Made by a program: the position numbers and the translations under genes. Source: Verrucomicrobia bacterium UBA6015 (GTDB lineage: Bacteria > Verrucomicrobiota > Kiritimatiellia > UBA8416). Taken from it: a DNA stretch of 64,000 nt. Of the stretch, positions 10,299-42,331 are shown one piece after another. The stretch is taken from contig DIZZ01000281.1 of NCBI GenBank assembly GCA_002428045.1, positions 1,634-65,633 on the forward strand, read 5' to 3'. Every line of letters starts with the position of its first letter. Position 1 is the stretch's first letter. The notes beneath the pieces were generated by a model. The model ran no database searches. It saw nothing but the letters and a program-made list of their open reading frames with translations, and was not told where the DNA came from.

Positions 10299-11342
10299 CT
10301 ATGGTGGTGCCGATGGCGAAAGATTTGACTTCCCCCCTGTTGAAAGCAATCCACAGGCGGCGAGGATATCCTCCCCGCGTGATGCGCGCACCGTGGTTCG
10401 GATGCCTTTGCCGACCAGGGCCTCGCGGAATTCCTGGATGGTACCTTCCGGTGAACTTTCCAGCGGGGTGTCCGGGATGGGATGGAATCGGATCAGGTTC
10501 ATGCGGCAGCTCAGGCCGCCCAGCAGTCGCACGATTTCGCGAACATGCCGGGGGCTGTCGTTGATGCCCTTGAACATGATGTACTCAAAGGAAATCCGCC
10601 GCTGCGGGTCGGTGTTGCCGGCCTTCAGCAGGTCGACGACATCGGCGATGGGATAGACCTTCTCGACCGGCATGAACTGCTGGCGCTCGTCATGGAACGG
10701 GTTGTGCATACTGACGGCCAGATGGCAGGCGGAATGCGCAAGGAAATGCCGGATGCCCGGGATCAGGCCGATGGTCGACACGGTGATGCGGCGCGGACTC
10801 AAGGCGAGCCCCCAGTCGGCCGTCAGGATCTCGAGACTGCGCATCACGTTGTCCAGATTATCAAAGGGTTCGCCCATGCCCATATACACGATGTTGGTCA
10901 GGCGCTCCCGTTCCGGCAGGCTCAGGATCTGGTTCAGGATCTCGCCCGCCGACAATTGGGCCTGGAAGCCCTGCCTGCCGGTCATGCAGAACAGGCAGCC
11001 CATCTTGCAGCCCACCTGCGAGGAGACACACAGCGTGGCGCGGTCCCCGTCCGGAATATAGGCCGCTTCGACAAACCGGTTCTGCCGGGTCGGGTAAAGG
11101 TATTTCCGGGTGCCATCGGCCGACGTCTGGACCTTCGTGGCCTCGTTCAGGCCAAGGGTGAACCCGTCGCTGAGCCGTTGGCGGGCTTGTCGCGAGAGAT
11201 TGGTCATCGCATCAAACGAACGCGCAGGCTTCTTGTAGAGCCATTCACAGAGCTGCCGTCCCGAAAAGGAGGGAAGTCCCAGACGGGTGACGATCGCCTC
11301 CAGTTCCTCCGGTGTTTTGCCGATCAGGGGTTCTTCACTCAT
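10299..11342 (-). CDS. rlmN: 23S rRNA/tRNA m2A methyltransferase RlmN (radical SAM)
   Basis: CKMGCLFCMTG (Cx3Cx2C) and an RlmN-like N-terminus (SFSGRQLCEWLYKK). Length 347 aa. Confidence 0.85.
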   Translation of the reverse strand: MSEEPLIGKTPEELEAIVTRLGLPSFSGRQLCEWLYKKPARSFDAMTNLSRQARQRLSDGFTLGLNEATKVQTSADGTRKYLYPTRQNRFVEAAYIPDGDRATLCVSSQVGCKMGCLFCMTGRQGFQAQLSAGEILNQILSLPERERLTNIVYMGMGEPFDNLDNVMRSLEILTADWGLALSPRRITVSTIGLIPGIRHFLAHSACHLAVSMHNPFHDERQQFMPVEKVYPIADVVDLLKAGNTDPQRRISFEYIMFKGINDSPRHVREIVRLLGGLSCRMNLIRFHPIPDTPLESSPEGTIQEFREALVGKGIRTTVRASRGEDILAACGLLSTGGKSNLSPSAPP

Positions 11343-11485
11343 GACCAGAACGTATATCTCCGCCAGCAGATTATCAATCTATATGTTTGCAAATCGAACG
11401 TTTTTGGCGTATACGGTGTCGGCATAGAGTTTAGAAGTCTGTAGAGATATTACCAGTCTTCTGTAATAGAACCAAAGGAGTCACG

Positions 11486-20895: not shown

Positions 20896-21044
20896 CGTCG
20901 CCTTTGTCTTTTGCTAGAGCCCTAGTCTGCAAGGTGATAAAAAATTCAAAGAATTGTTGAAGACATCGCCAACGAGAAGCGTATATAGGGTAAGCGTGCC
21001 GATTTTGGCCGTGTTTGTTTCGTTCGCATGAAGGGGAGATCACC

Positions 21045-24000
21045 ATGAAAAAGTCGATTGTGTGTGCGTTGATGCTGCCGTTGTTGTCGTTGCAGGCGGC
21101 CGATGGGAATGACCTGGAGTTCATGGAGGCGTTTGCCTGGGGGGATCGCGCCGCCGCCCTCGCCCAGCTGGTGCCCGATACCGAGGACTATTTTTTCTAC
21201 CATTGCCTGAGCTATCAGCTTGCCGGCAATCGCGACGCCTTCCAGAAGACGTTGGATAAGTGGGTCTCGCGCAACCGCAATCAATGGAACGAGCGGATGA
21301 GCGAGATGCGGCGGCGCCAGATGCTACTTGATATGGATCGCTCGCCCGAGGCGGTCTGGGCGTTTCTCAAGCAGGATGCCGGGCTGTCCTTTTCGCACCG
21401 CGCCCGCCATGAGCAGACCAGCCAGCGCCAGCCTTCGGTCATCAAGCCGGAGCAATACAGCCTGGCCGCCTTCTGGCGGCAGCACGCGAATTCCGAACTC
21501 GATAAACTCACCGATCGCGGGCTTGAACTACTGCCCGATCCGAATGGCAATCCGGATGTTCGCCGGGCTTTCCTGCGCCGTTTGCAGCGTCCGGATTATC
21601 CCGGACTGGTCACGCTGATCCTGGCGGATCTGGACTATAAGGAACAAAACGGCAATATCACGATCTTTGGGCAGATTCCGATCCACAACCAGCTTACGAC
21701 GGATCAGTTGGTAGACCTCGCAACGCAGCGCCCGGCCCTGCTGCGTGAGGCCGACTATGTGAATGCACGGCTGGCGAGGATGCCGCTGCCGGATGCCGAC
21801 CTAGCGAATGATTCCGCCGCTGCCGTGACGTATCTGGAGGGGCTGTGGCGTTTCGTCGGCCCGCTTGAGCCGATGCATAATTCGCTGAAGGCGAATGTGT
21901 TGTATAACATGCTCGCGCATCAGCGTAAACTGGGTGTCTACGATTCCAGCCGATTCCTTGCCTATCTGGAGTTGCCGCGCCATTCCGGTTATATGCAGCG
22001 CGACCGGATGTCGCGCCTGCAACGGGAGCGGGCGATCTGGGTGGATGTGAATTACACCCCCTTCGTGCAAATCAGCCTGCCGCCGATCGGGGACGACGAA
22101 CCACTGGTGCGCGAGTTCCTGATTGAACTGTTGAAGGATGCCGAGGATGCGTCGCGCTTCCAGGACCTCTTCGAGGCCCGCTGGCTGGATGCGGTGTTTG
22201 CCGAGAGCAAGATCCTGCATGGTGTCGGTACCCCGGCGCAATGGTCCTCGCGGCTGGGGCCGGATGCCTACCGATCCCTGTTGGAGCGCATCGAACTGGA
22301 TTTCGCCCCGCAGAATCCCGCCTATTTCAAGCCGGGACAGCCCGTGGAGCTGGCCGTGGACGTGAAGCGGGTGGACAAGCTGCTGGTCAAGGTCTTCGAG
22401 ATCCAGACCTTCAACTACTACACCACCCGGCAGACGGCGATCGACCAGGCCGTGGAGCTGGATGGCATGATCGCCTCGTCTGAGCGCACGGTCGATACGG
22501 TGGCCGAGCCGTCGCGCCGCATGCGGCACCGGATCGCGCTACCGGAAATCAAGACTCGCGGTGTCTATGTCGTCGAGCTGATCGGCAATGGCGTCAGTTC
22601 GCGCGCCCTGCTGTATGTCGGTCACCTTGAGGCCATCAGCCAGGAGACCCCGGCGGGTCTGGCTGTCATGGTCTTGAACGAGGCGGGAGAAACGGTCAAG
22701 GATGCCGCCGTCTGGGTCGATGGGCGCGAGTACAACGCCGGTGACAAGGGCTTGGTGCTGCTGCCGTTCACGGATACCCCGGGTAGCCGCTTCGCCGTGC
22801 TGCGCAGCGGCGATTTCTGCAGTGCGCAGCAGCTCTATTTGCCGGAAGAGGTGTATGCTTTTTCCGCCGGTATCCATCTGGATCCCCAGAACCTGCCGCG
22901 CCAGCATCGGGGTCTGCTGATCCTGCGTCCCGATTTCCGCATCCATGGCATACCGCTTGACCCCGCGCTGCTGGGGGAGGTCAAGGTGACGCTGACCGCT
23001 GTCGATGCCAAGGGCGTCAGCACGGCCCGCGAGTTCAAGGCCACCTTCGCCCGCAACACTGAATGGACGGAATCCTTTTATGTGCCCGATGCCCTGCGCA
23101 GTCTTTCGGTCGCTGTCGAGGCAAAGCTGAAACGCAAGCGGGATCTTGAGGAAATCACCCTGAACGATCAACGGCGCGTGGACCTGAATCCGGCGCGTGG
23201 CGGGGATACACTCAGCCAGGTGTTCCTGGTGCCAGCCGCCGATGGCTGGCGTCTTGAGGTGCGCGGACTGAGCGGCGAGCCGATGGAGGCGGTTCCGTTG
23301 TCCTTGGAGTTGAATCATCCCGGATTCAATCGTTCCGTATCGATCCAGGCCAGCACCGACGCCGACGGCGTGGTTGTCCTGGGGCCGCTGACGGCACTGT
23401 CGCGGATTACCGTCGCAGGGCCGGGGAACTTGCGGCTGGATCGCGTTCTAACAGGGGCGGAAGTGGTATGGCCTGAGTTGCTGCACCTCAAGGCAGGCGA
23501 GATCGTTTCGCTGCCGTACCCGCAAGACCGTCATGTGGATCTTCGTCAGGTTTCGCTATTCAGACAGCGTGGCGAAACGATTTTAGCCGATTGCTCGGCG
23601 TTGGTCACGCTCAAGGATGGGGAGCTGCGGATCGAGGGCATGGAGCCGGGGCAATACCAGCTCGTGTCACATGAGAACGACCGTCGCATCCGGCTGGATG
23701 TTGCCGAGGCCGAGGCAGGCTCCGGGTATCTGCTCGGGAAAACCTCGCGCTGGCAGCAGACGGGTAATCGCCTGCCGTCGGTGGCGGAGGTATCAGAAAA
23801 GGAAGGCACCTTGCGCCTGCGCCTGCGCAACGTGACAACGGGCACCCGTGTCGCGGTACGGGTGGCGCGCTATGTCGATCCGGAATCGGCATTTCCAGAG
23901 GGCTATGGCTTCACCTCGCCGGTCAAGCGCGGCATGCTGCCTCCCTATGCCCAGTATGCCAATGGACGTCGTATCGGCGATGAATACCGCTATGTGCTGG

Positions 24001-27000
24001 AGCGGCGTTCGCTCGAGAAATTCGCAGGCACCCTGCTGGAGCGTCCCGGCCTGATCCTCAATCCATGGGAACTGCGCGAGACCACCACCGAGCAGGAACG
24101 GCTGAAGGGCGATCAGGACTATGCATCCGCACGGCAGGCCATGGCGGATGCCTCCGTCGAAACGGGACTGTCCGTGTATGGGGGGGCGGGTAGCGGAGTC
24201 GGGGGGCGGGGCCAGTCCGTTGACATCGGTTACGACTTCCTGCCGCAGGGCAGTCAATGGGTTCTGAACGCCGTCCCGGACAAGGATGGCGTGGTGACAA
24301 TCCCGCTCGGCGGCGCGCCGGAACATACGATGCTGGATATCGTGGTGCTCGACCGGTTCGGGCTTAGTCAGTTCCGGCATCTGCGTCCTTACCAGACGTT
24401 CACGCCCGTCGATCAACGCCTGCTTAGCGGACTGAAGCCGGATGCGGCCTTCAGTCGTCAAAAGCGCATCCGGTCACTGGCTGCCGGGGAGCAGGTGACT
24501 TTTTCCGATTCTGCGACGACCCGCTACCGAGCCATCACGACGCTGGGCCAGGCCTTCGATCTGCTGCAGGTGCTTAGCGGTAACGCCACCGTGCTGGAGT
24601 TCGCCTTCCTCAAGAACTGGCCCGGTCTGGATGAGGCCGCCAAACGCGAGAAGTACGGCAAGTATGCCTGCCACGAGGTCAACATTTTCCTGTCCCAACA
24701 CGATCCGGACTTCTTCAAACGGGTGATCAAACCCGCCCTGGCCTGCAAGAAGGATAAGACCTTTGTAGACCGCTGGCTGCTGGAGACCCTGACCACCGAG
24801 GATCTTCGGCTGGACCGTTTGCAGCAGCGCAATGCGCTGGAGCTGGCCCTGCTGGCGAAGCGTGGCGGCGATGCCCGCCAGATGCAGGCGGCCCTGCGCG
24901 AGGCGTGGGAGCTGCTGCCCCCCAATCCCGATGCATTTGCCCGGCTTGTACGTACCGCCTTGCAATCGGGCGATCTGGACAAGCCGGTTGACGGTTTTGG
25001 ATCTGCGGAAGACGAAATGATCGTTGAGGAAGCCAAGGACAAGTCGCTGGAGATGAAGAAGTTGGCACTGAGACCGAGTTCGCGTAGGCTGAATGGAGCG
25101 GGTGGATTGACTGAAGCGAGCAAATCAGACGCTGTGCCCATGGAGGAGAGGGACGCGATGATGGCCCCGTCCGCTGCGCCCGCCTCCGAGGCGGCCCTCA
25201 GTTTCGCAATGGCCGAGGCGACAATGGACGTCTCAGAGTCTGAGGGCGCGGATGGCGTGGTCCTGTTTGAAATGACTGCGGATACGTTTGCTGGTGAGGC
25301 GGTCCGCCTGTACCGGGCGTTGCCGCCGACCAAGGAATGGGCCGAGCAGAACTACTACCGTGTGCGGGCCGCAGAGGATCTGCCCGCGCGGCTTTCCGCG
25401 AATGCGTTCTGGCTGGATGTAGCCAGCGGCAAGGCACTGTCCGCGAACCTGCTGGAGGCGCATCGCCATCTGACCGATGTCATCACGGCGCTGGCGTTCT
25501 GTGGCCTGCCGTTCGAGGCGCAGCCCGTGGCCGAGACGACCGGCACGAACGGCCTGACCCTCGCGGCTGCCTCTCCCGTGCTGCTGGTGACGGAGCAGGT
25601 CCTGCCCGCGCCGGTGGCGGCGGATGACCGTCCGCTGCTGATCGCGCAGCAGTTCTTCCGGCCCGATGACCGCTATCGTTTTGAGGGCAACGAGCAGATC
25701 GAGAAATTCATCAGCGGCGAATTCGTGCGGCGCGTGGTGTATGGCGGACGCGTCACACTGACCAATCCCACGGCCTCGCGCCGCGTGCTCAACGTCCTGC
25801 GGCAACTGCCGCTGGGGGCGATCCCGCTACGCAACGGCGTGATGACCGATGATGGCGTGGTGCGGCTGGAACCCTACACCACCGAGAAGATCGAGTATTT
25901 CTTCGTCTTCCCGTTCGCGGGTCAATTCAGCCAGTTCCCGGCCCAGGCGGCCGCTGGCGAAAGTGTGGTCGGCCGGGCCGAGGCACAGGTGTTCAACGTG
26001 GTGAACGAGCCGACCGAGGTGGACAAGACTTCCTGGGCCTGGATCTCTCAATATGCACCGGCCGACGATGTGCTGGCGTTCCTCGGCAAGGAAAACCTGC
26101 GGCGGCTCGATCTCGGTGAGATCGCCTGGCGGCTCAAGGACCGCGGTTTCTTCACAAAGGCCTGCGATCTGCTCGCGTCGCGTGGGCTGTTCCATGACAC
26201 GACCTTCTCGTACAGCGTCCACCACAAGGATGCAGACCGCGCCCGCCTCTGGCTGGCCCGCAGCAGCCTGGCTGGCAGGGTAGGCCTGGTGCTGGAGTCG
26301 CCGTTGCTGAAGGTCGATCCGGTCGAGGCGAAGGTTTATGAGCATCTGGAGTACGATCCGCTGGTCAATCCGCGGGTACACCCCGTCGGCGAAAAGCTCA
26401 AGATCCTCAACACGGCGCTGGATGCCCAGTACCGAGCCTTCCTGAGGACGGCGGCCTACCGGGCGGAATTGCCAGCCAGCCAACGGCTGGCACTGGTGTA
26501 TTACCTGCTGTTGCAGGACCGGCTGGCCGATGGGTTTGCGGAACTGGCGAAGATCAACGACAAGGATCTGCACGAGACGGTGCAGGTGGATTACCTTCGC
26601 GCCTGGGTGGCGCTGCGCCAGCTTGATGTCAAGCGCGCCGCAAAGCTGGCTGAAGCGTACAAGGATTATCCGCTGCCTCGCTGGCAGTCGCGTTTCCGCG
26701 CCCTGACCCAGGCGATTGCCGAAGCGCAGGGGGCGGAGGTCGCCGGGCTGGATGAACCCAACCGCCAGCAGGATCTCGACCAGCAGGCGGAGCAATCGCC
26801 CTCGCTGGACCTTGCGGTGGAAACCGGCAAGCTCTGGCTGACCGCTTATGCGGTGGGCGAGGTGACGCTGAATCTCTACCCGATGGACATCGAGCTCATG
26901 TTCAGCCGCAAACCGTTCCTTTCGGAAGGGGCGACCGATTTCGCGGTGATCCGTCCGGCCTTGTCACAGACGCTCAAGATCAAGGCCAACGGCGAGCCCG

Positions 27001-27371
27001 AGGAGCTGACGCTGCCGGCGGATTACGCCAAACGCAACCTGATGGTGGAAGTCGTGGGCAAGGGACGGCGTGCGGCGACGGCCTGGTACGCCAACCAGTT
27101 GCGGGTGCGCCTGATCCAGGATTACGGGCAGATCGAGGTCCGCTCCGCGGCGGATGGAAAGCCGCTGCCGACGACGTATATCAAGGTCTTTGCACGGGGA
27201 ACGAATGGACGCGAGCAGTTCTGGAAGGATGGCTACACCGATTTGCGCGGACGCTTCGACTACCTGTCCCGCAATGATCGCAAGCCCGAGGAGGCGGTGG
27301 AATTCTCCATCCTCGTCCTGCATCCGGAGCTAGGCGCCGAAATCCAAAACGCCACCCCGCCCGCCCGGTGA
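21045..27371 (+). CDS. Giant secreted protein (2108 aa), function unknown; possibly alpha-2-macroglobulin-like architecture
   Basis: RBS AAGGGGAG and a signal peptide MKKSIVCALMLPLLSLQA. A long beta-rich region with MG-like segments is followed by an alpha-helical module (~res 1650-1900) and a C-terminal beta domain. No CxEQ thioester motif found. Confidence 0.65.
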   Translation: MKKSIVCALMLPLLSLQAADGNDLEFMEAFAWGDRAAALAQLVPDTEDYFFYHCLSYQLAGNRDAFQKTLDKWVSRNRNQWNERMSEMRRRQMLLDMDRSPEAVWAFLKQDAGLSFSHRARHEQTSQRQPSVIKPEQYSLAAFWRQHANSELDKLTDRGLELLPDPNGNPDVRRAFLRRLQRPDYPGLVTLILADLDYKEQNGNITIFGQIPIHNQLTTDQLVDLATQRPALLREADYVNARLARMPLPDADLANDSAAAVTYLEGLWRFVGPLEPMHNSLKANVLYNMLAHQRKLGVYDSSRFLAYLELPRHSGYMQRDRMSRLQRERAIWVDVNYTPFVQISLPPIGDDEPLVREFLIELLKDAEDASRFQDLFEARWLDAVFAESKILHGVGTPAQWSSRLGPDAYRSLLERIELDFAPQNPAYFKPGQPVELAVDVKRVDKLLVKVFEIQTFNYYTTRQTAIDQAVELDGMIASSERTVDTVAEPSRRMRHRIALPEIKTRGVYVVELIGNGVSSRALLYVGHLEAISQETPAGLAVMVLNEAGETVKDAAVWVDGREYNAGDKGLVLLPFTDTPGSRFAVLRSGDFCSAQQLYLPEEVYAFSAGIHLDPQNLPRQHRGLLILRPDFRIHGIPLDPALLGEVKVTLTAVDAKGVSTAREFKATFARNTEWTESFYVPDALRSLSVAVEAKLKRKRDLEEITLNDQRRVDLNPARGGDTLSQVFLVPAADGWRLEVRGLSGEPMEAVPLSLELNHPGFNRSVSIQASTDADGVVVLGPLTALSRITVAGPGNLRLDRVLTGAEVVWPELLHLKAGEIVSLPYPQDRHVDLRQVSLFRQRGETILADCSALVTLKDGELRIEGMEPGQYQLVSHENDRRIRLDVAEAEAGSGYLLGKTSRWQQTGNRLPSVAEVSEKEGTLRLRLRNVTTGTRVAVRVARYVDPESAFPEGYGFTSPVKRGMLPPYAQYANGRRIGDEYRYVLERRSLEKFAGTLLERPGLILNPWELRETTTEQERLKGDQDYASARQAMADASVETGLSVYGGAGSGVGGRGQSVDIGYDFLPQGSQWVLNAVPDKDGVVTIPLGGAPEHTMLDIVVLDRFGLSQFRHLRPYQTFTPVDQRLLSGLKPDAAFSRQKRIRSLAAGEQVTFSDSATTRYRAITTLGQAFDLLQVLSGNATVLEFAFLKNWPGLDEAAKREKYGKYACHEVNIFLSQHDPDFFKRVIKPALACKKDKTFVDRWLLETLTTEDLRLDRLQQRNALELALLAKRGGDARQMQAALREAWELLPPNPDAFARLVRTALQSGDLDKPVDGFGSAEDEMIVEEAKDKSLEMKKLALRPSSRRLNGAGGLTEASKSDAVPMEERDAMMAPSAAPASEAALSFAMAEATMDVSESEGADGVVLFEMTADTFAGEAVRLYRALPPTKEWAEQNYYRVRAAEDLPARLSANAFWLDVASGKALSANLLEAHRHLTDVITALAFCGLPFEAQPVAETTGTNGLTLAAASPVLLVTEQVLPAPVAADDRPLLIAQQFFRPDDRYRFEGNEQIEKFISGEFVRRVVYGGRVTLTNPTASRRVLNVLRQLPLGAIPLRNGVMTDDGVVRLEPYTTEKIEYFFVFPFAGQFSQFPAQAAAGESVVGRAEAQVFNVVNEPTEVDKTSWAWISQYAPADDVLAFLGKENLRRLDLGEIAWRLKDRGFFTKACDLLASRGLFHDTTFSYSVHHKDADRARLWLARSSLAGRVGLVLESPLLKVDPVEAKVYEHLEYDPLVNPRVHPVGEKLKILNTALDAQYRAFLRTAAYRAELPASQRLALVYYLLLQDRLADGFAELAKINDKDLHETVQVDYLRAWVALRQLDVKRAAKLAEAYKDYPLPRWQSRFRALTQAIAEAQGAEVAGLDEPNRQQDLDQQAEQSPSLDLAVETGKLWLTAYAVGEVTLNLYPMDIELMFSRKPFLSEGATDFAVIRPALSQTLKIKANGEPEELTLPADYAKRNLMVEVVGKGRRAATAWYANQLRVRLIQDYGQIEVRSAADGKPLPTTYIKVFARGTNGREQFWKDGYTDLRGRFDYLSRNDRKPEEAVEFSILVLHPELGAEIQNATPPAR

Positions 27372-27571: not shown

Positions 27572-27880
27572 ATGAGTGCCAACATTGAGGATCTTATGGC
27601 CTTGTTGGGCGAGCGGATACGCGAGTTGAGGCTGCGAGAAAATATTGCCCAGACTGTGCTGGCGATGCGGAGTGGTGTTTCACTGAAGGCCGTGAAGAAT
27701 CTGGAAAATGGCACCGGAGCGACCGTTTCTTCATTGCTGCGGGTGTTGCGTACCTTGGGTCGGAACGAGTGGATTGAGACGCTTGGTCCCAAGGTCGGCA
27801 TCAGTCCTATGCAGATGGTGAACCGCAGAAAAACGCGCCTGCGGGCGACACGAAAAAAGACCGGGGTGGCTGATGTATAA
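27572..27880 (+). CDS. hipB: HipB-like XRE-family HTH antitoxin
   Basis: Helix-turn-helix region (IAQTVLAMRSGVSLKAVKNLENG). It overlaps the downstream HipA-like gene by 8 nt. Confidence 0.7.
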   Translation: MSANIEDLMALLGERIRELRLRENIAQTVLAMRSGVSLKAVKNLENGTGATVSSLLRVLRTLGRNEWIETLGPKVGISPMQMVNRRKTRLRATRKKTGVADV

Positions 27881-29144
27881 GCCGGTCAATCTCGTTGAAG
27901 TCTGGATCTGGGGAGCGCGTGTCGGGGCTGTCGCCAAGGATCCGCGAACTGGATTCTATGCGTTTGAATATGATCCCCGATTTGTTCGCACAGGCATTGA
28001 ATTGGCGCCGCTTTTCATGCCGATCCGGAGGGCAAATCAACCGTTTGTTTTTCCGGACTTGCCCGAAGAAAGCTATCATCGCCTCCCGGCGCTCCTTGCC
28101 GATGCGCTGCCGGATTCCTTCGGTAATATCCTGATTGATGCATGGATGGCAGAGCAGGGCATCGAACGGAGTCGGATCAGCGTTCTGGATCGCCTGGCGT
28201 ACATGGGAAAGCGAAGCATGGGCGCACTGGAATTCAAGCCCGTGATCGGACCGAAGGAGAAGACCCCCACCGCGATTGAGCTCTCCTCGCTTGTGGAAAG
28301 CGCACGGAGGGCTGTTTATGGCGACTTAGGAATAGATGCTCGCACGGATGCGGCGTTGCACCAGTTGATGCAGGTGGGCACGTCCGCTGGCGGAGCACGG
28401 GCCAAGGCTGTGATCGGATGGGATCGCAAGAATCGAAAACTCTGCTCCGGGCAGTTCGATGTTCCTGATGGCTTTGAGCACTGGATCATCAAATTCGACG
28501 GTGTCGGGGATACGCCCAATGCGACGCAGGATTCAGGACGGGTGGAACTGGCTTATCACAACATGGCTCGGGCAGCAGGCATTACAATGATGGAGTGCGA
28601 TCTGTTTTGCCATGATGGACGCGCACACTTCATGACCCGGCGGTTCGACCGTGACGGCAACACCAGGCATCATCTGCAGACCCTCTGCGCGATGGCACAT
28701 CTATCTTTTCATCAGCGGGCTGCCTATAGCTATCACCAGCTCTTCGAGACCGTCAATGAGCTCGGGATGGACTACGCCACCCGCGAAGAGGTTTTCCGTC
28801 GCATGGCCTTCAACGTCTTGGCTAGAAATACCGATGACCACAGTAAAAATGTCTCGTTTCTCTTGAAACAGGGTGGGGGGTGGGAGCTTGCGCCCGCATA
28901 TGATCTCACCTACTCCTATACGCAGGTTGGCGAATGGAATGAGTGGGCGAACCCCCGGGTGATGGCAGTCAGCGGGAAATTCTCGAACATCACCGCCAAG
29001 GATCTGCTGGAGGTGGCTGAGCAATTCGGCATCGGAACCGCACGGCGGGAACTGGATCGTGTCATGGATGCTGTCCGTCGCTGGCCGACATTTGCCGACG
29101 CTGCCAGCGTGACAGACGAGAACGTGATACAAGCCCTAATCTAA
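27873..29144 (+). CDS. hipA: HipA-family Ser/Thr kinase toxin
   Basis: HipA N-terminal (VWIWGARVG) and C-terminal kinase regions (HWIIKF...ARNTDDHSKNVSF...YDLTYSY). Confidence 0.8.
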   Translation: MYKPVNLVEVWIWGARVGAVAKDPRTGFYAFEYDPRFVRTGIELAPLFMPIRRANQPFVFPDLPEESYHRLPALLADALPDSFGNILIDAWMAEQGIERSRISVLDRLAYMGKRSMGALEFKPVIGPKEKTPTAIELSSLVESARRAVYGDLGIDARTDAALHQLMQVGTSAGGARAKAVIGWDRKNRKLCSGQFDVPDGFEHWIIKFDGVGDTPNATQDSGRVELAYHNMARAAGITMMECDLFCHDGRAHFMTRRFDRDGNTRHHLQTLCAMAHLSFHQRAAYSYHQLFETVNELGMDYATREEVFRRMAFNVLARNTDDHSKNVSFLLKQGGGWELAPAYDLTYSYTQVGEWNEWANPRVMAVSGKFSNITAKDLLEVAEQFGIGTARRELDRVMDAVRRWPTFADAASVTDENVIQALI

Positions 29145-29361: not shown

Positions 29362-30603
29362 CTAGATGGCATTCCAGGGGATGGCGGCGGCGTGCGGAGA
29401 GATGGACCAGGCCTCATGTCCGGCGAAAAGGATAACGCCGGGTTGTGCCTGCGGATACGTGGTGCGAAAGGCCTGGATGCCGCGTGTGTCGTGACCGCTG
29501 ACCTGCGTCGATGCCTTAAATTCAATCGGGTACAGTTTGCCGTCCTGCTCCAGCACGGCATCGACCTCCGCCCCGTTCTCCGTGCGCCAGTGCCATAACC
29601 CCGGTGATATCGGAAGACGTGCCAGTTGGCTGCGCAGCCAGCCCACACACCAGGATTCGTAGATTTGTCCGAGCAGGGGACTTGCCAGCAGGCTCTCCGG
29701 CGACGACAGCGTCTGAAGATAGCAGGCGAGTCCCGAGTCCTGGATGTGCCCCTTAGGTTTCATGCTCAGGCGTTTGATGGTATTCCCGCTGTACGCGGGT
29801 AACTCCGTCCACTGGTACGAATGCACCAATAGATCCAGCCAATGGCGTGCCGTTTTGGGGCTGACTCCAATATCCCTGCCGAATTGCGATTGATTAATCT
29901 CGCGTGCCGTCATGGCACCGCATAGGCGGAGGAACCGACCGAACAGTGCCAGATCCGACACATTCCCCATAACGCGCACATCCCGTTCGATATAGGTCTG
30001 GACATACGAGCTGAAGTAGGCGGGAACATCGGCATTATTCTCGAACTCCAGAAGTCCCGGAAGTTGCCCGCGCCAGAGCATTGTGGTGAGCGGAACGGAA
30101 GACGATATCAAGGACCGGTCCTGGCGGGGTTGATTGACGAATTGCGCAGGGTCATGCAAATATTGTCCTAGCCAGCTTTTGACTTGGGCCTGCCCGTGTT
30201 GCTCGGCTAGCGTCATGCCGTCCAGACGCAAAATGCCGACCCGCCCGGCAAGGCTTTCCGATACCGTTCGCAGCACGGCCAGATTTTGCGAACCGCAAAG
30301 ATAATACTGCCCTTTGCGGTCGCTGCCATCGACGCGACGCTTGATCGCCGGCAGCAATTCCGGCGCATATTGGACTTCATCCAGTAGGAGCGGACTGCCA
30401 AATGTATCGAGAAAACGATCGGGATCAGTCCGGGCACCGTAGGGATCCTGTATCGGATCAAAGGTAACACATGTCACCCCTGGCAGAAAATGCTGTAGCA
30501 GCGTGCTTTTGCCAACTTGTCGCGCACCGGCAATCATAATGACTTTAAACAATCGTGCATAACGCGTTAGCAAGACCTCGACATGCCGTTCTAGATATTT
30601 CAT
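29362..30603 (-). CDS. AAA+ ATPase (AAA_14 + DUF4143-type)
   Basis: Walker A IAGARQVGKSTLL and Walker B LLLDEVQ. ~410 aa, typical of DUF4143 ATP-binding proteins. Confidence 0.75.
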   Translation of the reverse strand: MKYLERHVEVLLTRYARLFKVIMIAGARQVGKSTLLQHFLPGVTCVTFDPIQDPYGARTDPDRFLDTFGSPLLLDEVQYAPELLPAIKRRVDGSDRKGQYYLCGSQNLAVLRTVSESLAGRVGILRLDGMTLAEQHGQAQVKSWLGQYLHDPAQFVNQPRQDRSLISSSVPLTTMLWRGQLPGLLEFENNADVPAYFSSYVQTYIERDVRVMGNVSDLALFGRFLRLCGAMTAREINQSQFGRDIGVSPKTARHWLDLLVHSYQWTELPAYSGNTIKRLSMKPKGHIQDSGLACYLQTLSSPESLLASPLLGQIYESWCVGWLRSQLARLPISPGLWHWRTENGAEVDAVLEQDGKLYPIEFKASTQVSGHDTRGIQAFRTTYPQAQPGVILFAGHEAWSISPHAAAIPWNAI

Positions 30604-35562: not shown

Positions 35563-37104
35563 ATGACAACACGCTCTATAAGCCCCTTTGTAGGCACTTG
35601 TGCAATGTGCCTGTCGACCCTGTTTTGTCTGAACCTGGCCGACTCTGCGTCCGCTCAATCCCTTCCGTCTTGGTATATTGCGCCGCCGGAGGATCCCGCC
35701 CTGGTTACCGGTCGCGGCATGGCTGAGCTCGGGCGGGGGGGTGAAGCGGCCGCCCTGGAGCAGGCCAAGCGCGAAGCCATGCGGGATATGGCGCAGTCGC
35801 TTCTGAGCCGGGTCACCTCCGAGATCATCGACCACCAGGAAGAGCAAGACACTGGCGGCGTGGCGAGTCAGTATGCCAGCCGCACGGTTGTGGAATCCGC
35901 CCTGGAGCTTGTGAATGTACGTACGTTGCATGAGGCCGTTACCAAGGATATGGCGTTTGTGGCGGTGGCGGCGGAACGCGACGGCATGGCCCGCGCCTAC
36001 CGTGAGCGCACCACCCGGCAATTCGACACGGCGGCAGCGGCGTTTGTCCGAGCCGGTGCGTTGGAGGCCGAGAAGAACGCCCGTGACGCCCTGTCCGCCT
36101 ATGAATCCTCCCTGGCGGCCTTGCGCGATGCCCATAGCAGTCTGCAGGTCTATCTGGCGCTTAGCCGCTGGGCCGACCAGCCCCCCGTGCCCTCCACGCT
36201 GCCGGATCCTGCCGATATCCACGTGCGCCTGAAACGCCTGTCGGCATCCACTCCGCGCACGCTCCAGGAGGTCGCCGCCGCCTTGACGACTTCATTGACC
36301 GCCTCCCTGCCGCCCGACGCCCGTCCACAGTCCTGGACCGTCCTGCCGATCGAGTTTGAGCATACGGGGTTTGTGTCCGACTTCGGACATCAGCTTGCCA
36401 GTGTGCTTTCCGCAACCCTGACGTCACATCCAGCCATACGCATGACGGATAATCCGGCCAGTGCCGCCGTTATCGTACGCGGGCGGATGCTGCGGGAGGG
36501 AGAGAGCGTGCTCCTGATCCTGAGCGCCGGCAGCCGGACCATCCAGCATTACATTGAGCCCGTCACCTGCGCCGCGATCGGCAAGGCCAGGATCGAGCCG
36601 CCCGATTTGGATCGACTACTGGCGGACAAGCTCGCATTACACAAGGCCATGCAGGCTCCGTCAGGACTCCGGGTTGAGCTGCGTGCCGACCGTGACGAGC
36701 CTGTCACCTATCGTTTCGGCGACAAACCGAAGCTGGCGGTACGGGCGGACCGGGCCTGTTTCATCCGGCTGGTCTACGTTACGGCTGACGGCCAACGGTT
36801 ACTCCTGAAGGATCGTTACGCCATCGGCGAACACCAGGCCAACCAGTGGGTAACGCTGCCGCTGGACATGGAGGTCTGCGAACCGTCCGGTGTTGAGCAG
36901 ATGCTACTACAGGCTGTTACGCAGGAGGACGATGCCCGCCTTCCGCCGCTGAAGGTCAGGAACGAGCAGGTTGGCGACAGCTACGTCATCCCCGTGATTG
37001 AGGAAACGCTCGACGAAGCCATGACACGAACCCGTGGCATGATGATCAAAAAACAGTCCCACTTCGCCGAAATCGCCAGCCAGTGGACCATCTTCGCGAA
37101 ATAG
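35563..37104 (+). CDS. Secreted protein with LPP20-like N-terminal domain and C-terminal DUF4384-like domain
   Basis: Signal-like N-terminus. The Ala-rich LPP20-like region reads GRGMAELGRGGEAAALEQAKREAMRDMAQSLL. The C-terminal segment VTYRFGDKPKLAVRADRACFIRLVYVTADGQRLLL...WVTLPLDMEVCEPSGVEQMLLQAVT is DUF4384-like. Confidence 0.55.
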   Translation: MTTRSISPFVGTCAMCLSTLFCLNLADSASAQSLPSWYIAPPEDPALVTGRGMAELGRGGEAAALEQAKREAMRDMAQSLLSRVTSEIIDHQEEQDTGGVASQYASRTVVESALELVNVRTLHEAVTKDMAFVAVAAERDGMARAYRERTTRQFDTAAAAFVRAGALEAEKNARDALSAYESSLAALRDAHSSLQVYLALSRWADQPPVPSTLPDPADIHVRLKRLSASTPRTLQEVAAALTTSLTASLPPDARPQSWTVLPIEFEHTGFVSDFGHQLASVLSATLTSHPAIRMTDNPASAAVIVRGRMLREGESVLLILSAGSRTIQHYIEPVTCAAIGKARIEPPDLDRLLADKLALHKAMQAPSGLRVELRADRDEPVTYRFGDKPKLAVRADRACFIRLVYVTADGQRLLLKDRYAIGEHQANQWVTLPLDMEVCEPSGVEQMLLQAVTQEDDARLPPLKVRNEQVGDSYVIPVIEETLDEAMTRTRGMMIKKQSHFAEIASQWTIFAK

Positions 37105-37255
37105 TGAGGTGCCCGCCGAGCTCATTTACTGCCACCGGACCGGAATGCTCCGGTTACGTCATCTCGTGTACGAAGCGCCCAGTTTCGATATCGTCTGCAA
37201 GTGCCGTTCAAAACAATTGCAGAACACCGCCGGTCTGTGGCAATATCCACCCACT

Positions 37256-38932
37256 ATGAAAATATTTAAACCAGTTCTGTTTGTCGTGCCTGCCCTCACC
37301 CTGTGGGCAGCCAGTTTATTCGCCCAGGCCAGCGATACGCGAGGCATGAAGGTGCTGTCTGCAGAACAGAGTGGCGTTGTCGGATATGACCCTGCGCGTT
37401 TTCATGCACTGATTATCGGCATCAATAATTACTCTCGGTGGGCCAAGCTCAGGACAGCCGTCAATGACGCCACGTCCGTGGCAGACGCCTTGGTAGACAA
37501 CTATGGATTCCCCGCAGGTCAGGTGCGGCGCTTATTGGATGAGAATGCCACGCGCCGCAATATCCTGCAGGAACTCGATCGGATTTCCGAGCTCGGGCCT
37601 GAGGATAGCGTGCTGATCTACTATGCGGGGCATGGCTGGATGGATGAACATAGGAACGGGTTCTGGATTCCTGTGGATGCCCCCGAGGACGATAAATTCG
37701 CCTATGTATCCAATGCCCAGGTTGTGCAGGAATACTTCAAGAAATACGCGGTAAGGCACCTGTTGGTGGTATCGGACTCCTGTTTCAGTGGCGCATTGCT
37801 GCGCGGCACGGGGGCTAAGCGGGAAGCCGACTGGAAAATACCGGCTGGTTTTAGGAAACCTTCCCGTTGGGTGATTACCAGTGGCGATCTGGCTCCGGTT
37901 CCAGATGATGCAGGCACGGGGCATAGTCCCTTTGCAACGCGCCTGCTGCAATATCTGCGCTATGGTGATGAGCCCGCGTTCGGTATCTATGACCTATTCA
38001 GTTTTGTCAAACACAACCTGGCGAGCGGTGCCATCTGCGAGCCCTTGGATACGCCGTCACACATGCCGGGGGGTGAATTTGTGCTGGCTCGGCTGGATAC
38101 GTCCATTCCCAAGCCACCACCCGACAAGGTCTTGCCGCCTAATATCGTCCTCGAACCAAAGGTATCCCCCTCCCCAAAGGAGAATACGTCTGCTTCCAGC
38201 AATACGCGAACCATCGATCTTGGGGATGGCATTGAGTTGGCGATGGTCCTTGTGAATGCGGGCCGTTTTGAAATGGGTACGGAGAGCGGGGGCTCTGGTA
38301 ATGAACGCCCGGTGCGAACGGTGCATATCACGCGAGATTTCTGGATGGGGAAGACCGAGGTCACGCAGCGGCAGTGGAAACAGCTTATGGGCAAGAATCC
38401 AAGCCATTTCAAGGGGGATGATTTACCGGTGGAAAAGGTGTCTTGGAATGATTCGGTAAAGTTCTGCGAGGCACTCACCAGGCGAGAGCGGGAGGCGAAC
38501 CGATTGCCACAAGGGGCTGTGTACCGCCTCCCGACAGAGGCGGAGTGGGAATACGCGGCGCGTGGTGGAGGCAAGGGAATGAACACGCTGTATGCAGGCA
38601 GCGATAATCTGGACACCGTGGCATGGCATCGCGGAAACAGCGGACGCAAAACACAGAACGTGGGTACAAAAGCGGCCAACGAGCTGGGCCTTCACGATAT
38701 GAGTGGGAATGTTTTGGAGTGGGTTCATGACAAGTATCAGGACAGCTACAAGGGGCTTGAAACGACAGATCCCAGCGGGCTTCAGAAGTCAGGTTTGGAT
38801 CGTGTGGATCGGGGCGGAAGCTGGGATTCATCGGCGTCGTACTGTCGTGTTGCCTATCGCTGTGGCTGGTTCCCTTCCCGCATGGTCAATACCTTGGGAC
38901 TCCGGGTGGTGCTCGCTGCACCCGTTCAATAA
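37256..38932 (+). CDS. Secreted caspase-like (peptidase C14) domain fused to FGE-sulfatase (SUMF1/formylglycine-generating-enzyme-like) domain
   Basis: Signal peptide MKIFKPVLFVVPALTLWAASLFAQA. Caspase His/Cys dyad context: HALIIGINNY...YYAGHGW...LLVVSDSCFSG. C-terminal FGE domain: WMGKTEVTQRQW...YRLPTEAEWEYAARGG...RGGSWDSSASYCRVAYRC...GLRVV. Confidence 0.75.
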   Translation: MKIFKPVLFVVPALTLWAASLFAQASDTRGMKVLSAEQSGVVGYDPARFHALIIGINNYSRWAKLRTAVNDATSVADALVDNYGFPAGQVRRLLDENATRRNILQELDRISELGPEDSVLIYYAGHGWMDEHRNGFWIPVDAPEDDKFAYVSNAQVVQEYFKKYAVRHLLVVSDSCFSGALLRGTGAKREADWKIPAGFRKPSRWVITSGDLAPVPDDAGTGHSPFATRLLQYLRYGDEPAFGIYDLFSFVKHNLASGAICEPLDTPSHMPGGEFVLARLDTSIPKPPPDKVLPPNIVLEPKVSPSPKENTSASSNTRTIDLGDGIELAMVLVNAGRFEMGTESGGSGNERPVRTVHITRDFWMGKTEVTQRQWKQLMGKNPSHFKGDDLPVEKVSWNDSVKFCEALTRREREANRLPQGAVYRLPTEAEWEYAARGGGKGMNTLYAGSDNLDTVAWHRGNSGRKTQNVGTKAANELGLHDMSGNVLEWVHDKYQDSYKGLETTDPSGLQKSGLDRVDRGGSWDSSASYCRVAYRCGWFPSRMVNTLGLRVVLAAPVQ

Positions 38933-39044
38933 GGGCACGTATTTTCTCGTTGTTTTCCGAGCGCCGTTTCCCTAATATCCATTCCGATTTGAAACCGTTA
39001 TTTTATATGTGCTGATCATTGTCCTTGTTATTGCGACCACGATT

Positions 39045-40238
39045 ATGGGAAAACTACAGGTATTTGTATTTGCTGTCGGCACCTTTATTCACTGCTCTGT
39101 CGCAAATGCCTTGCCACCATCGGCTTCCCCTTCAACGCCAGCAACGTGGTTGATCGAACGGTATCAAAAATTCTTAACCCATTCAAAGGCAAGTACATGT
39201 GGAATGCATCCGTCGTGCTCTGAATACGCTCGAGAGGCGTATTCTGAAGTGCCTCTCTGGAATGCTTCACTGGCGACAGCGGATCGGCTGAATCGCTGTG
39301 GGCACGATAACTTGCAGTACGACTATGCGGATGTATCAGGCGTTTTGAAGAAACTCGATCCGCCACCTGGTTCAACCAACGTGAGCATTCCCCGGATATC
39401 ATCCAACACGGCACCGATTCATCCCGTAGATGTTCATCTTGCCAGCATGAAGAAGGGGTTATCTGAGGATGCGATGGCTCTGGATTTCGCGCGGTACTTG
39501 CACGGTTCGGGAATGCATGAGGAAGCGCTGGTCGAGTACTTGCGTTTTCTCAGGCAATATCCAGACTCAAAGCTGGTGTCATCCGCGCATATCAGCGTGA
39601 TGCATCTTCATTATGAAGTAGGAGACTACCTGATGGCGGTCCGAGGGGCTGAGCAGGCGATGCAAGCCGAACAGATATCGGTTGAAGACATTCCCGAATT
39701 GAAGTTTTGGGTCAGTGCCGCATACGCCCGCCTCGATAACCCCGAAATGGCTCGCCAATCACTGCCCCGTAATGAAGCAGGCCCTGAACTTGCGGCCCGG
39801 GCCAAGCTCCTTGAAGGGTATACCTATGCGCAGCAAGAGGATTGGACGCGAGCCGCTGTGGCGTTTCAAGAATATGGCCTTGTGACGCATGATGAGGCGA
39901 GGGTGAATGACCTGACGGACGTGAGTCGTCAAGCCCTTGCTCGACGAAGGAAAAGCCCAGGCGTTGCCGGGGTATTGGGCATTGTTCCGGGGCTTGGATA
40001 TCTCTATTCAGGCTATCCCGAGTCTGCGGTCAGTGCGCTTATTATTAATTCGCTCCTGGTGTCGGCAAGCTATCAGGCATTCAAGGATGGTAATGAACCG
40101 CTAGGCGCGTTGCTTGGCGTTATCGGGATTGGGTGGTATGCAGGCAGCATTTATGGCTCAGTATCCGCTGCTGAACGTCGGAACGAAAAGGATTTGCGAG
40201 ATACGCTTTTAGAGTTAAAAGTAGGATTTCGCTTTTAA
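39045..40238 (+). CDS. YidD-like (haemolytic domain) N-terminal domain fused to TPR-like region and two C-terminal TM helices
   Basis: IERYQKFLTHSKASTCGMHPSCSEYAREA...RLNRCGHD matches the YidD Cys motif. The helical repeat region is TPR-like, and the hydrophobic C-terminus reads GVLGIVPGLGYLY...LIINSLLVSA. The start could instead be the upstream GTG at 39009. Confidence 0.55.
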   Translation: MGKLQVFVFAVGTFIHCSVANALPPSASPSTPATWLIERYQKFLTHSKASTCGMHPSCSEYAREAYSEVPLWNASLATADRLNRCGHDNLQYDYADVSGVLKKLDPPPGSTNVSIPRISSNTAPIHPVDVHLASMKKGLSEDAMALDFARYLHGSGMHEEALVEYLRFLRQYPDSKLVSSAHISVMHLHYEVGDYLMAVRGAEQAMQAEQISVEDIPELKFWVSAAYARLDNPEMARQSLPRNEAGPELAARAKLLEGYTYAQQEDWTRAAVAFQEYGLVTHDEARVNDLTDVSRQALARRRKSPGVAGVLGIVPGLGYLYSGYPESAVSALIINSLLVSASYQAFKDGNEPLGALLGVIGIGWYAGSIYGSVSAAERRNEKDLRDTLLELKVGFRF

Positions 40239-40282
40239 AAACAGCGTCCTATAGTTGGACGCAAAAGGAAAGGAACAAGACG

Positions 40283-40807
40283 ATGAGAAGAACAAGTCGG
40301 GCAATGAGAATGACGAGCGCGATTACACTGGTTGCATATTTGTGTGCGTTCGGGCCTATACCCGTAGCGCAAGCCGAAGAAAGGATTCCAGTATCGGCGG
40401 GAACATTGGTCATGGTGAGGCCGACTGGCGTCGTTTCGGCGAGCACGAACAAAACCGGGGATACGGTTGAGTTTGTTGTTGTGCAAGACGTGAAAGTGAG
40501 TGATATGGTCGTGATCAAAGCCGGTGCACGTGCCCGCGGTCAAATCGCGTCCGCCCAAAAGGCAGGGTTTCTTGGTATACCTGGCCGGATTTCGGTTGAA
40601 CTCCAGTCTGTCGAAACGGTTGATGGCTCAATGATTCCTGTTCGTGCATCAAAGTCGATGGATGGTGAAGACAAGATTATTATGGCGGTTGTACTGACGT
40701 TGATCTGTCTTCCATTCATCCTGATCAAGGGTGGCAATGCAGAGATGTCTTCGTCCACTACGTTTGATGCGTTCACCCTGGGCACTGCTGACGTAACCAT
40801 CAAGTAA
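40283..40807 (+). CDS. Small secreted/anchored hypothetical protein (174 aa)
   Basis: RBS AAAGGAAAGGAA, a signal peptide ...AFGPIPVAQA, and a C-terminal hydrophobic helix IIMAVVLTLICLPFILI. No recognised family. Confidence 0.5.
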   Translation: MRRTSRAMRMTSAITLVAYLCAFGPIPVAQAEERIPVSAGTLVMVRPTGVVSASTNKTGDTVEFVVVQDVKVSDMVVIKAGARARGQIASAQKAGFLGIPGRISVELQSVETVDGSMIPVRASKSMDGEDKIIMAVVLTLICLPFILIKGGNAEMSSSTTFDAFTLGTADVTIK

Positions 40808-40844
40808 GTGACATCCCTCCGTTTGGGTTCACATTCAATGGTTG

Positions 40845-40879
40845 GGGTTACCCAGTGTAAGCTGGGTAACCCTTTTTTT
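40845..40879 (+). terminator. Rho-independent terminator
   Basis: GGGTTACCCAG-tgtaa-CTGGGTAACCC (perfect 11-bp stem) followed by TTTTTTT, 38 nt after the stop at 40807. Confidence 0.65.
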
Positions 40880-41413
40880 GAAAGACGACGAACGTTGGTC
40901 AATCGGGCATTGACCACTGGTCAAGCCGGGGGGATCGCGGTAGCGGTCGTGGTAGCCATACACGGCTTGGCACAGCTTCAACCCCAAAAAAAGTATCGCG
41001 CTCGCGCCGCTCTGCTCGTATCCGCTTGCGTTCACAGTGAACCGCTAAAGATCTTACCCTCCTTTTTTCGCACGGGACCCAGGGTGGTCGGCTTGCCCGG
41101 AGGTCTTCGCCCTACCTGCCTTTGCATGGCCTCGTTGCTGCATTTTGGATGCTTGAAATGTAGGGTCGGTTGCGTTAGCGTATGACGTCATGAATTTTAT
41201 ACATGACGACTCCGTGCTGGATGGGGAGCAGGCTCGGCAGCAACGCATCGAACAGCAGAAGTCCATTGGGCGGGACTGATTCAGCGAGGGTTGCCAGAGC
41301 CGCATTCGCGCATTACCTGGCACAGGTTGATGTGCTAGGGGATCGTGGATGCCGGTCCGGCTTCCAGAAGCATATCATTCGTTGTGGCTCCTCTAGGTCT
41401 CAAGCGGAAAGGA

Positions 41414-42331
41414 ATGGCGATGCGTAAAGTGCGAGTACTGATAAATCCGAAGTCCGGGTTGCCGCGGGGCTTTTCGTCGCTCCGCCAGGCGCTGGATATG
41501 CATTGGGATGTGGCTGGCACCGAGCTGACCTATCAATTTACGCAAAGCAAGGAGGACGGGGTCGCCAAGGCTCAACGGGCGGTTACCGACGGTGTCAATA
41601 TTATACTCGTTTCCGGAGGCGATGGGACCGTGAGTACGATCAGCCGCGTGCTGGTCGACACCGACGTGGCCCTCGGCGTGATTCCCACCGGCAGCGGAAA
41701 CGGGTTTGCCCGGCATTTCGGAATCCCGCTGGCTCCGTCCAGAGCGGCCGAGGCATTGGTTCATGCCGAGGAGCGGCGAATTGATGTCGGTCTGGTCAAC
41801 GGATTGCCGTTCTTTGTGACCTGCAGCATGGCCTGGGATGCCGCCTTCGTCCGGACCTTCGAGAAATTCCCGATGCGCGGCATCCTGCCTTACGTTTTTG
41901 CAGGGGTGCAGGAGTTTTTTGATTACGAGCGCCAGGATATGGACGTAACCTTCGACGACGGGGAAACGCTTCACCTGAAGAGCCCCATGATCATGACCGT
42001 GGCGAATCTGACGCAGTTTGGCGGCGGGGCCTTGATTGCGCCCCATGCAGAGGATGATGACGGAAAACTGGAGTTTATCGGGGCCTTGCAGAAGGATTTC
42101 GCATTGCTGCTGGCCAATCTGGGTCGCCTTTTCAATGGGTCGGTAAGCCAGATCCCGCGGTTGGTCACGCGCAGTTCCTCACGCATGACCATTGAGCGTC
42201 CGAAGGCGGCCGCGATCCAGGTCGATGGAGAAATGGTTGAAGCGCCACAACGGCTGGATATCGTGGTTAAGCCGTTTGCGCTGCGGGTCCTAGTGCCGCG
42301 GAAATACGGAAAAAACGACGACAGGGGGTAA
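41414..42331 (+). CDS. Lipid kinase, diacylglycerol-kinase catalytic domain (YegS/BmrU-like)
   Basis: VLINPKSG...ILVSGGDGTV...IPTGSGNGFA. RBS GGAAAGGA. Confidence 0.75.
   Translation: MAMRKVRVLINPKSGLPRGFSSLRQALDMHWDVAGTELTYQFTQSKEDGVAKAQRAVTDGVNIILVSGGDGTVSTISRVLVDTDVALGVIPTGSGNGFARHFGIPLAPSRAAEALVHAEERRIDVGLVNGLPFFVTCSMAWDAAFVRTFEKFPMRGILPYVFAGVQEFFDYERQDMDVTFDDGETLHLKSPMIMTVANLTQFGGGALIAPHAEDDDGKLEFIGALQKDFALLLANLGRLFNGSVSQIPRLVTRSSSRMTIERPKAAAIQVDGEMVEAPQRLDIVVKPFALRVLVPRKYGKNDDRG

Follow-up and report, generated by a model that had tools for sequence, protein, structure and literature searches.

The subject of this analysis is a pair of adjacent forward-strand genes of Verrucomicrobia bacterium UBA6015, found within a 64,000-nucleotide stretch of contig DIZZ01000281.1 (positions 1,634 to 65,633; hereafter the window). 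The locus, at 39045-40883 of the window, is a two-gene operon, and the pair is a widespread, uncharacterised two-gene envelope module. The first gene (39045-40238) encodes a 397-aa fusion protein composed of a signal peptide, a YidD-like domain, a TPR region and a C-terminal helical hairpin, while the product of the second (40283-40807; 174 aa) has, in its AlphaFold2 model, the fold of the VirB10 C-terminal domain (CTD). An earlier note, made from the DNA letters alone, had singled out the first gene as an open reading frame (ORF) for a protein of about 400 aa in which a YidD-like "haemolytic" domain is joined to TPR-like repeats and two transmembrane helices. That gene is real; the unit to which it belongs is larger than 39045-40238 and includes the gene at 40283-40807. 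The predicted export of the YidD-like domain and the conserved operon partner with its modelled VirB10-CTD fold go beyond what had been noted.

The YidD-like domain

The fusion gene is recognised from the ORF list, from an identical metagenome protein (P0001) and from full-length homologues. Translation from the ATG at 39045 gives 397 aa, and from an alternative GTG start at 39009, 409 aa. The YidD-like domain occupies residues 34-108 (39144-39368, forward strand) and was identified by several routes. Pfam family PF01809 (YidD), the scan of which had been suggested as a check, matches residues 34-87 (E=5e-12; 45.8 bits, the gathering score being 27), and NCBIfam model TIGR00278 scores 46.2 bits where 40 is the cut-off. 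The YQ...C...P-x-C-S-x-Y...R-x-x-x-C core was also aligned with E. coli YidD by BLASTP (E=8e-8). The motifs YQ, C-x-M-x-P-S-C-S-E-Y and D-R-L-x-R-C-G-H-D, the beta-hairpin and D-P-x-P are kept across phyla. The N-terminal Cys-containing core, quoted in the earlier note as YQKF...STCGMHPSCSEYA...RLNRCGHD, is present in the window protein, and its segments STCGMHPSCSEYA and DRLNRCGHD are conserved family-wide. The AlphaFold2 model places helices at residues 32-43, 58-68 and 71-84 and strands at 93-104. Judged from its sequence, the N-terminal domain is a bona fide member of the YidD family. A motif scan of the window revealed no other yidD, canonical included.

Canonical YidD is a stand-alone protein of approximately 70-100 aa, found at the cytoplasmic face beside YidC/SecYEG and usually encoded in an rnpA-yidD-yidC cluster. 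It reportedly works with YidC/SecYEG at insertion, as Yu et al. 2011 are said to have described. YidD has also been presented as a factor alongside YidC/SecYEG in membrane insertion (PMC8082313, which cites Yu et al. 2011). The likeness of the domain in the window to this protein lies in homology above curated thresholds and in the retention of YQ, C-x4-5-P-x-C-S-x-Y, R-x-x-R-C and the terminal DPxP; like its canonical counterpart it is presumably active at the membrane surface. The differences concern size, location, motif and context. The window protein is a multidomain protein of 397 aa, and the split forms described below have 130-150 aa including a signal peptide; the domain is predicted to lie behind a signal peptide, either fused to TPR and helical hairpin or as a separate exported ORF. 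It carries the DRLxRCGHD variant and an extra beta-hairpin, and its gene is paired with a VirB10-like gene rather than linked to rnpA or yidC.

The TPR region and the C-terminal membrane module

The YidD-like domain is followed by a linker (residues 109-140; 39369-39464) which is poorly conserved and predicted to be disordered, with a predicted local distance difference test score (pLDDT) below 50 at residues 116-131 and a length that varies in both family alignments (A1 and A2). Next comes a TPR-like helical solenoid (residues 141-299; 39465-39941) in which E164 and R167 are invariant. The fusion to TPR-like repeats is borne out by the helix-turn-helix solenoid fold of this region, though the TPR models of Pfam score below cut-off on the window protein (TPR_6, 18.5 bits; TPR_14, 16.2 bits; TPR_2, 14.1 bits); precomputed TPR matches are present in several homologues.

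The C-terminal membrane module (residues 303-397; 39951-40235), defined by columns invariant in A1 and A2 and by the AlphaFold2 model, is the best-conserved portion of the family in these alignments. It begins with two short helices around an invariant P-G-L-G-Y-x-Y, which are succeeded by helices 325-347 and 351-392, the two hydrophobic C-terminal helices that had been anticipated. Both are modelled with pLDDT >90, and they are Gly-rich, with the signature G-W-Y-x-G-x-I-x-G-S. No Pfam family matches the module at E<=10 except for a chance-level match to DUF4118, and the predicted hairpin fits no described family. The C-terminal ...LKVGFRF was considered as a beta-signal of the outer membrane protein type or as a PDZ ligand, many homologues ending in F or Y; both were set aside as leading ideas since residues 351-392 are modelled as one continuous helix (pLDDT >90) and the Bacteroidales members end differently.

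Predicted export of the fusion protein

Signal peptides were judged from sequence features and from comparison of homologues. Residues 1-22 of the fusion protein (39045-39110), MGKLQVFVFAVGTFIHCSVANA, read as a signal peptide, with a Lys in the n-region, an h-region of 13 residues and, just ahead of the predicted cut, A-N-A; the same segment had been proposed earlier as a candidate, and it behaves as one, with equivalents in all full-length homologues. These share a short basic n-region, a hydrophobic core of 10-15 residues, an AxA-like motif, a variable polar linker and then the YQ motif. The residue that directly follows the predicted cut is Gln in nine of nine Bacteroidales members (NA|Q, RA|Q, KA|Q, AA|Q, NG|Q), and Gln in this position is typical of signal peptidase I substrates of the Bacteroidota (the Q-rule). 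Where the protein is split into two ORFs, the YidD half and the TPR half each possess their own signal-peptide-like N-terminus. In view of the Gln of the Bacteroidales proteins and the separate signal peptides of the split loci, the N-terminus is best read as a Sec signal peptide that is cleaved, and we consider it likely that the YidD-like and TPR domains are exported to an extracytoplasmic location. Lipoprotein anchoring was discarded, a lipobox-like Cys occurring in few homologues only.

The partner protein

The partner gene (40283-40807, forward strand) specifies a signal peptide (residues 1-31, AQA|E) and a beta domain (residues 33-127 and 161-173) bearing a hydrophobic insertion. Every partner protein found begins with a signal peptide, so that signal-peptide features are present on every component of the module. 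The protein has no match in Pfam (E<=10), NCBIfam, PADLOC, PHROG or the sequences of the Protein Data Bank (PDB). AlphaFold2 models it as one beta domain, into which the final two strands (161-173) pack back; the pLDDT is 82.8 overall and exceeds 90 across most of residues 40-130. A Foldseek search with this model returned VirB10-family structures as all of its top 21 matches, at a probability >=0.99 and with E-values down to 4e-5. The model thus has the beta-barrel fold shared by the C-terminal domains of VirB10, TraF, TrwE, CagY and ComB10, and by this structural criterion the partner is VirB10-CTD-like. A link to VirB10/TrbI (PF03743) at the level of sequence was rejected, there being no Pfam match at E<=10 and no PDB sequence match at E<=10 with the partner profile (A3).

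The VirB10 C-terminal domain carries an inserted two-helix "antenna" which enters the outer membrane and forms a channel there (PMC9371333). The partner differs from VirB10 in this and other respects. It has no detectable sequence similarity to VirB10; it consists of a signal peptide and one domain, lacking the N-terminal inner-membrane anchor and the Pro-rich spacer; and its insertion, in the C-terminal third, is one hydrophobic stretch of 17-19 residues and not an amphipathic two-helix antenna. Furthermore, no VirB7, VirB9, VirB4 or other ATPase or secretion genes are conserved near the pair at the 49 loci compared.

In the partner encoded in the window the hydrophobic insertion comprises residues 132-148 (40676-40726), IIMAVVLTLICLPFILI, with a mean Kyte-Doolittle value of 3.1 and the conserved central Cys. 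Across homologues it is situated between strand 117-127 and the last strands, has a mean hydropathy of 2.4-3.2, is flanked by G-E/D-D/S-K and K-G-G, contains a near-invariant central Cys or Cys-Cys, and is always followed by approximately 25 residues. AlphaFold2 models it as a low-confidence loop. Two distant relatives (P0028 and P0029) are missing exactly this segment and retain the flanking strands, which indicates that the hydrophobic segment is an insertion into a soluble domain.

The gene pair and its conservation

The two genes are separated by a gap of 44 bp containing a Shine-Dalgarno-like sequence, AAGGAAAGGAA (40265-40275, by sequence reading), which ends 7 nt before the ATG of the partner gene. 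A terminator scan located an intrinsic-terminator-like hairpin at 40844-40883, 37 nt past the partner stop codon; it has a 13-bp stem with seven G-C pairs and is followed by TTTTTTG.

Partner homologues were detected by tblastn at 27 related loci across phyla. The partner is located downstream at 25 of these, on the same strand and at a distance of 37-190 bp, and upstream, as a tandem pair, at the other two. When all ORFs lying up to about 5 kb from the module at 49 loci were clustered, two conserved families only emerged, the fusion and the partner. The partner is adjacent at 24 of the 34 YidD-bearing loci with enough flanking sequence, versus one of the six loci at which a TPR protein with two transmembrane helices (TPR-2TM) occurs without YidD (Fisher p=0.02). 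A search for divergent partners hidden in the "partner-less" loci, using a hidden Markov model (HMM) built from 30 partners, uncovered none. On one low-GC contig (L001) the fusion gene is flanked by two paralogous genes for proteins of about 205 aa (9324-9941 and 11309-11932) in place of the VirB10-like partner. The paralogues are 34% identical, give faint matches to Borrelia_P13, contain a Gly-rich hydrophobic region and end in ...YRF and ...VKF; a TRL-family gene comes next.

Distribution of the family

An exhaustive HMMER profile search of 1.84 billion cluster representatives yielded 2,267 at E<=1e-30. Among the 150 best, the majority match over their full length and in one stretch, in proteins of 370-460 aa. 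A word-indexed protein search had returned 15 relatives only among 5.8 billion proteins, and in view of the profile result the rarity it suggested is an artefact of low sensitivity. In reference genomes, one for each GTDB species, 44 loci were located across many diderm phyla, in Zixibacteria, TA06, Ignavibacteria, Chlorobi (Prosthecochloris), Brevinematales, Desulfobacterales, Nitrospirota, Verrucomicrobia and others, with many in the Bacteroidales (Dysgonomonas, Odoribacter, Alloprevotella, Muribaculaceae and Bacteroidaceae). Approximately 28 independent loci, in genomes and metagenomes of several phyla, carry the fusion in frame, and it is therefore not an artefact of assembly or frameshift. 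The homologous fusions for which a search had been advised thus exist in number, and the architecture, unusual when set against textbook YidD, is not rare, belonging as it does to a large family spread over many phyla. The window protein itself is identical to metagenomic entries (P0001), and near-identical fragments are listed as "hypothetical protein" in Verrucomicrobia metagenome-assembled genomes. Literature searches brought up no account of an exported or TPR-fused YidD, or of the gene pair, which is no proof that none exists; the InterPro domain-architecture listings probably already show YidD-TPR fusions.

At about 10 loci the protein occurs in split form, with YidD (130-150 aa) and TPR-2TM (approximately 285-350 aa) encoded by separate ORFs overlapping by a few bases. 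One contig (L005, 667-6128) carries a split operon, in which a 238-aa ORF is accompanied by an exported YidD of 140 aa and by two TPR-2TM paralogues (297 and 288 aa), together with a fused YidD-TPR-2TM gene (P0010) about 1-2 kb downstream; the VirB10-like partner was not detected there. TPR-2TM proteins with the same invariant hairpin motifs, and with neither YidD nor partner, are found in Chlamydiae (L043-L045), Victivallales (L048) and Spirochaetota (L051). These proteins suggest an older hairpin-TPR core, to which YidD is an accessory.

The VirB10-CTD fold has been seen as a hallmark of the type IV secretion core, and here it appears, on the evidence of the model, as a small stand-alone protein without a secretion system, in many phyla and in gut Bacteroidales among them. 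For annotation the consequence is a practical one, as both proteins are currently called "hypothetical" or have been mis-labelled, by transfer, as the cytoplasmic insertion factor YidD.

Proposed function and alternatives

Tentatively, and with somewhat less than even confidence, we propose that the two products form a complex in which an exported YidD-TPR scaffold handles the hydrophobic loop of the exported VirB10-like partner. A Sec-type signal peptide would take the first gene product out of the cytoplasm, leaving the YidD-like domain and the TPR solenoid to face the periplasm, and the conserved Gly-rich C-terminal hairpin would hold it at a membrane. The second would be exported as a small beta domain of VirB10-CTD fold with its Cys-containing hydrophobic insertion of 17-19 residues. 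The TPR-hairpin scaffold would dock the VirB10-like protein, and the YidD-like domain, flexibly linked and redeployed on the periplasmic side, would shield or orient the loop of the partner or insert it into the membrane. In canonical YidD this fold sits at the membrane surface and contacts inserting hydrophobic segments; "repurposed module", the term used in the earlier note, is a fair description. A broader version, which we regard as rather doubtful, is that of a hitherto unrecognised, widespread diderm envelope system, with a YidD-type domain that is dedicated, on the periplasmic side, to inserting or holding the hydrophobic loop of an orphan VirB10-like protein after its translocation. 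If true, YidD-fold domains would be general handlers of hydrophobic segments on either membrane face, and the VirB10 core fold would have a role apart from type IV secretion, possibly that of an ancestral module for membrane penetration or tethering. YidD is near-universal in bacteria and its mechanism obscure, and with this family the action of the fold could be studied on a defined client in a defined compartment. Known folds make up the components; specialists would nevertheless be surprised by an extracytoplasmic YidD and by a VirB10 fold free of a secretion system, and both are directly testable.

Several observations weigh against this proposal. Roughly 30% of the YidD-bearing loci with adequate flanking sequence have no detectable partner, the HMM search included. 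The activity of canonical YidD is poorly defined, which makes the analogy a weak one, and in the closest relatives of the window protein (P0002-P0004 and L009, one subclade) the third YidD Cys is replaced by Ser. The top structural match of the TPR region, YfgM, barely exceeds generic TPR proteins (17.0 versus 16.7 for MamA) and is not diagnostic. The hairpin has 2-7 Lys/Arg in each of its TPR-side flanks and only 1-2 in the loop between its helices; by the positive-inside rule the Lys/Arg on the TPR side would therefore place YidD and TPR in the cytoplasm. In the window protein these flanks read RRRK before helix 1 and RRN.K..R after helix 2. The helices of the hairpin are only moderately hydrophobic (mean Kyte-Doolittle approximately 1.3-1.4 by hand calculation), and insertion from the periplasmic side is for this reason conceivable. 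Lastly, the hydrophobic segment of the partner (2.4-3.2) resembles an ordinary stop-transfer transmembrane helix, which would give the partner a single-pass topology with a 25-residue cytoplasmic tail. The AlphaFold2 model, in which the strands following the segment rejoin the beta domain, opposes such a topology; it was built from 14 sequences only.

The first gene product might instead be a general periplasmic accessory or chaperone for translocation or insertion, resembling YfgM/PpiD and serving many clients, with the VirB10-like neighbour one client or simply co-inherited. We think this unlikely, though the most probable of the alternatives. YfgM, an inner-membrane-anchored periplasmic TPR protein which operates with PpiD at the Sec translocon, has an N-terminal anchor and no YidD, whereas the anchor here is a C-terminal hairpin; the similarity to YfgM is generic TPR similarity; and no linkage to sec, yidC or ppiD was seen among the window genes scanned. 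A general role also sits poorly with a partner which is tightly linked, on the same strand, at 27 loci across phyla and which tracks the YidD-bearing forms (p=0.02).

Somewhat less plausible is a minimal outer-membrane channel or tether, in which the VirB10-like protein would form a ring with its insertion in the outer membrane and the TPR protein would act as scaffold or pilotin in the manner of PilF/PilW, TadD or BamD. A single insertion of 17-19 residues, though, cannot make up a two-helix antenna, and it could not traverse a membrane in both directions. VirB7, VirB9, VirB4 and other secretion genes are not conserved nearby, and the partner shows no relation to VirB10/TrbI in sequence. As to the scaffold, BamD, YbgF/CpoB, PilF/PilW, TadD and PorW/SprE are lipoproteins or soluble proteins with neither a C-terminal hairpin anchor nor YidD, whereas the N-termini of the TPR proteins are not consistently those of lipoproteins, and the sequence of the fusion scores far under the cut-offs of these families.

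An improbable alternative is that of an ordinary, cytoplasm-facing YidD fused to a TPR adaptor, its N-terminal segment being a membrane-associating helix and its hairpin having both ends in the cytoplasm. The charge bias described above suits this orientation of the hairpin; canonical YidD of E. coli likewise starts with a hydrophobic or amphipathic stretch, and in one source a homologue is labelled a component of the YidD insertase type. On the other hand, the hydrophobic N-terminus closes with AxA-type motifs (A|Q in Bacteroidales) and is separated from YQ by a variable polar linker of 10-50 residues. At split loci the TPR-2TM half has a signal peptide of its own, which would be senseless for a cytoplasmic TPR protein; the conserved partner is itself predicted to be exported; and linkage to rnpA or yidC is lacking. 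A membrane-damaging effector within a toxin- or bacteriocin-like operon is highly improbable, being favoured solely by the historical family name "haemolytic domain" and predicted export, while the domain would be tethered to the membrane of its own producer through the hairpin, the operon is chromosomal with a wide and vertical distribution, no immunity, secretion or mobility genes are conserved nearby, and PADLOC and PHROG gave no matches. The label "haemolytic" is an old family name only, with no support here for haemolysin activity. A defence-system or phage origin was dismissed for want of a single PADLOC or PHROG match.

Neighbouring genes in the window

MreB, PBP2, RodA, RNase G and LptD are encoded at 44-53 kb, and the window as a whole is chromosomal DNA from a diderm bacterium. 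Neighbouring genes were considered as further parts of the system and rejected, since radical SAM (34511), LPP20/DUF4384-like (35563), caspase-FGE (37253), DAGK (41345) and EEP (42336) have homologues at none of 50 related loci. Directly upstream of the fusion gene, at 37109/37253-38932 on the forward strand, a signal-peptide protein combines a caspase-like Peptidase_C14 domain (67.9 bits) with an FGE-sulfatase/GldK-like domain (166.5 bits), an uncommon combination which is not conserved beside the YidD-TPR module. It is preceded (35563-37104, forward strand) by the gene for a 513-aa exported protein with weak LPP20 and DUF4384 matches only and no homologue in the related loci.

Farther upstream, two giant forward-strand ORFs (11486-16753 and 21015-27371) encode 1,755 and 2,118 aa. 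A HipA-type toxin kinase (27873-29144, forward strand; HipA_C at 173 bits plus an N-terminal coupling domain) adjoins an AAA_14/DUF4143 ATPase gene (29362-30603, reverse strand), and an AAA_14/DUF4143 gene is also found near the module on the low-GC contig L001. The G+C content at 38001-42000, which takes in the module and its neighbours, is 54.2%, a mild dip relative to the approximately 57-65% of much of the window.

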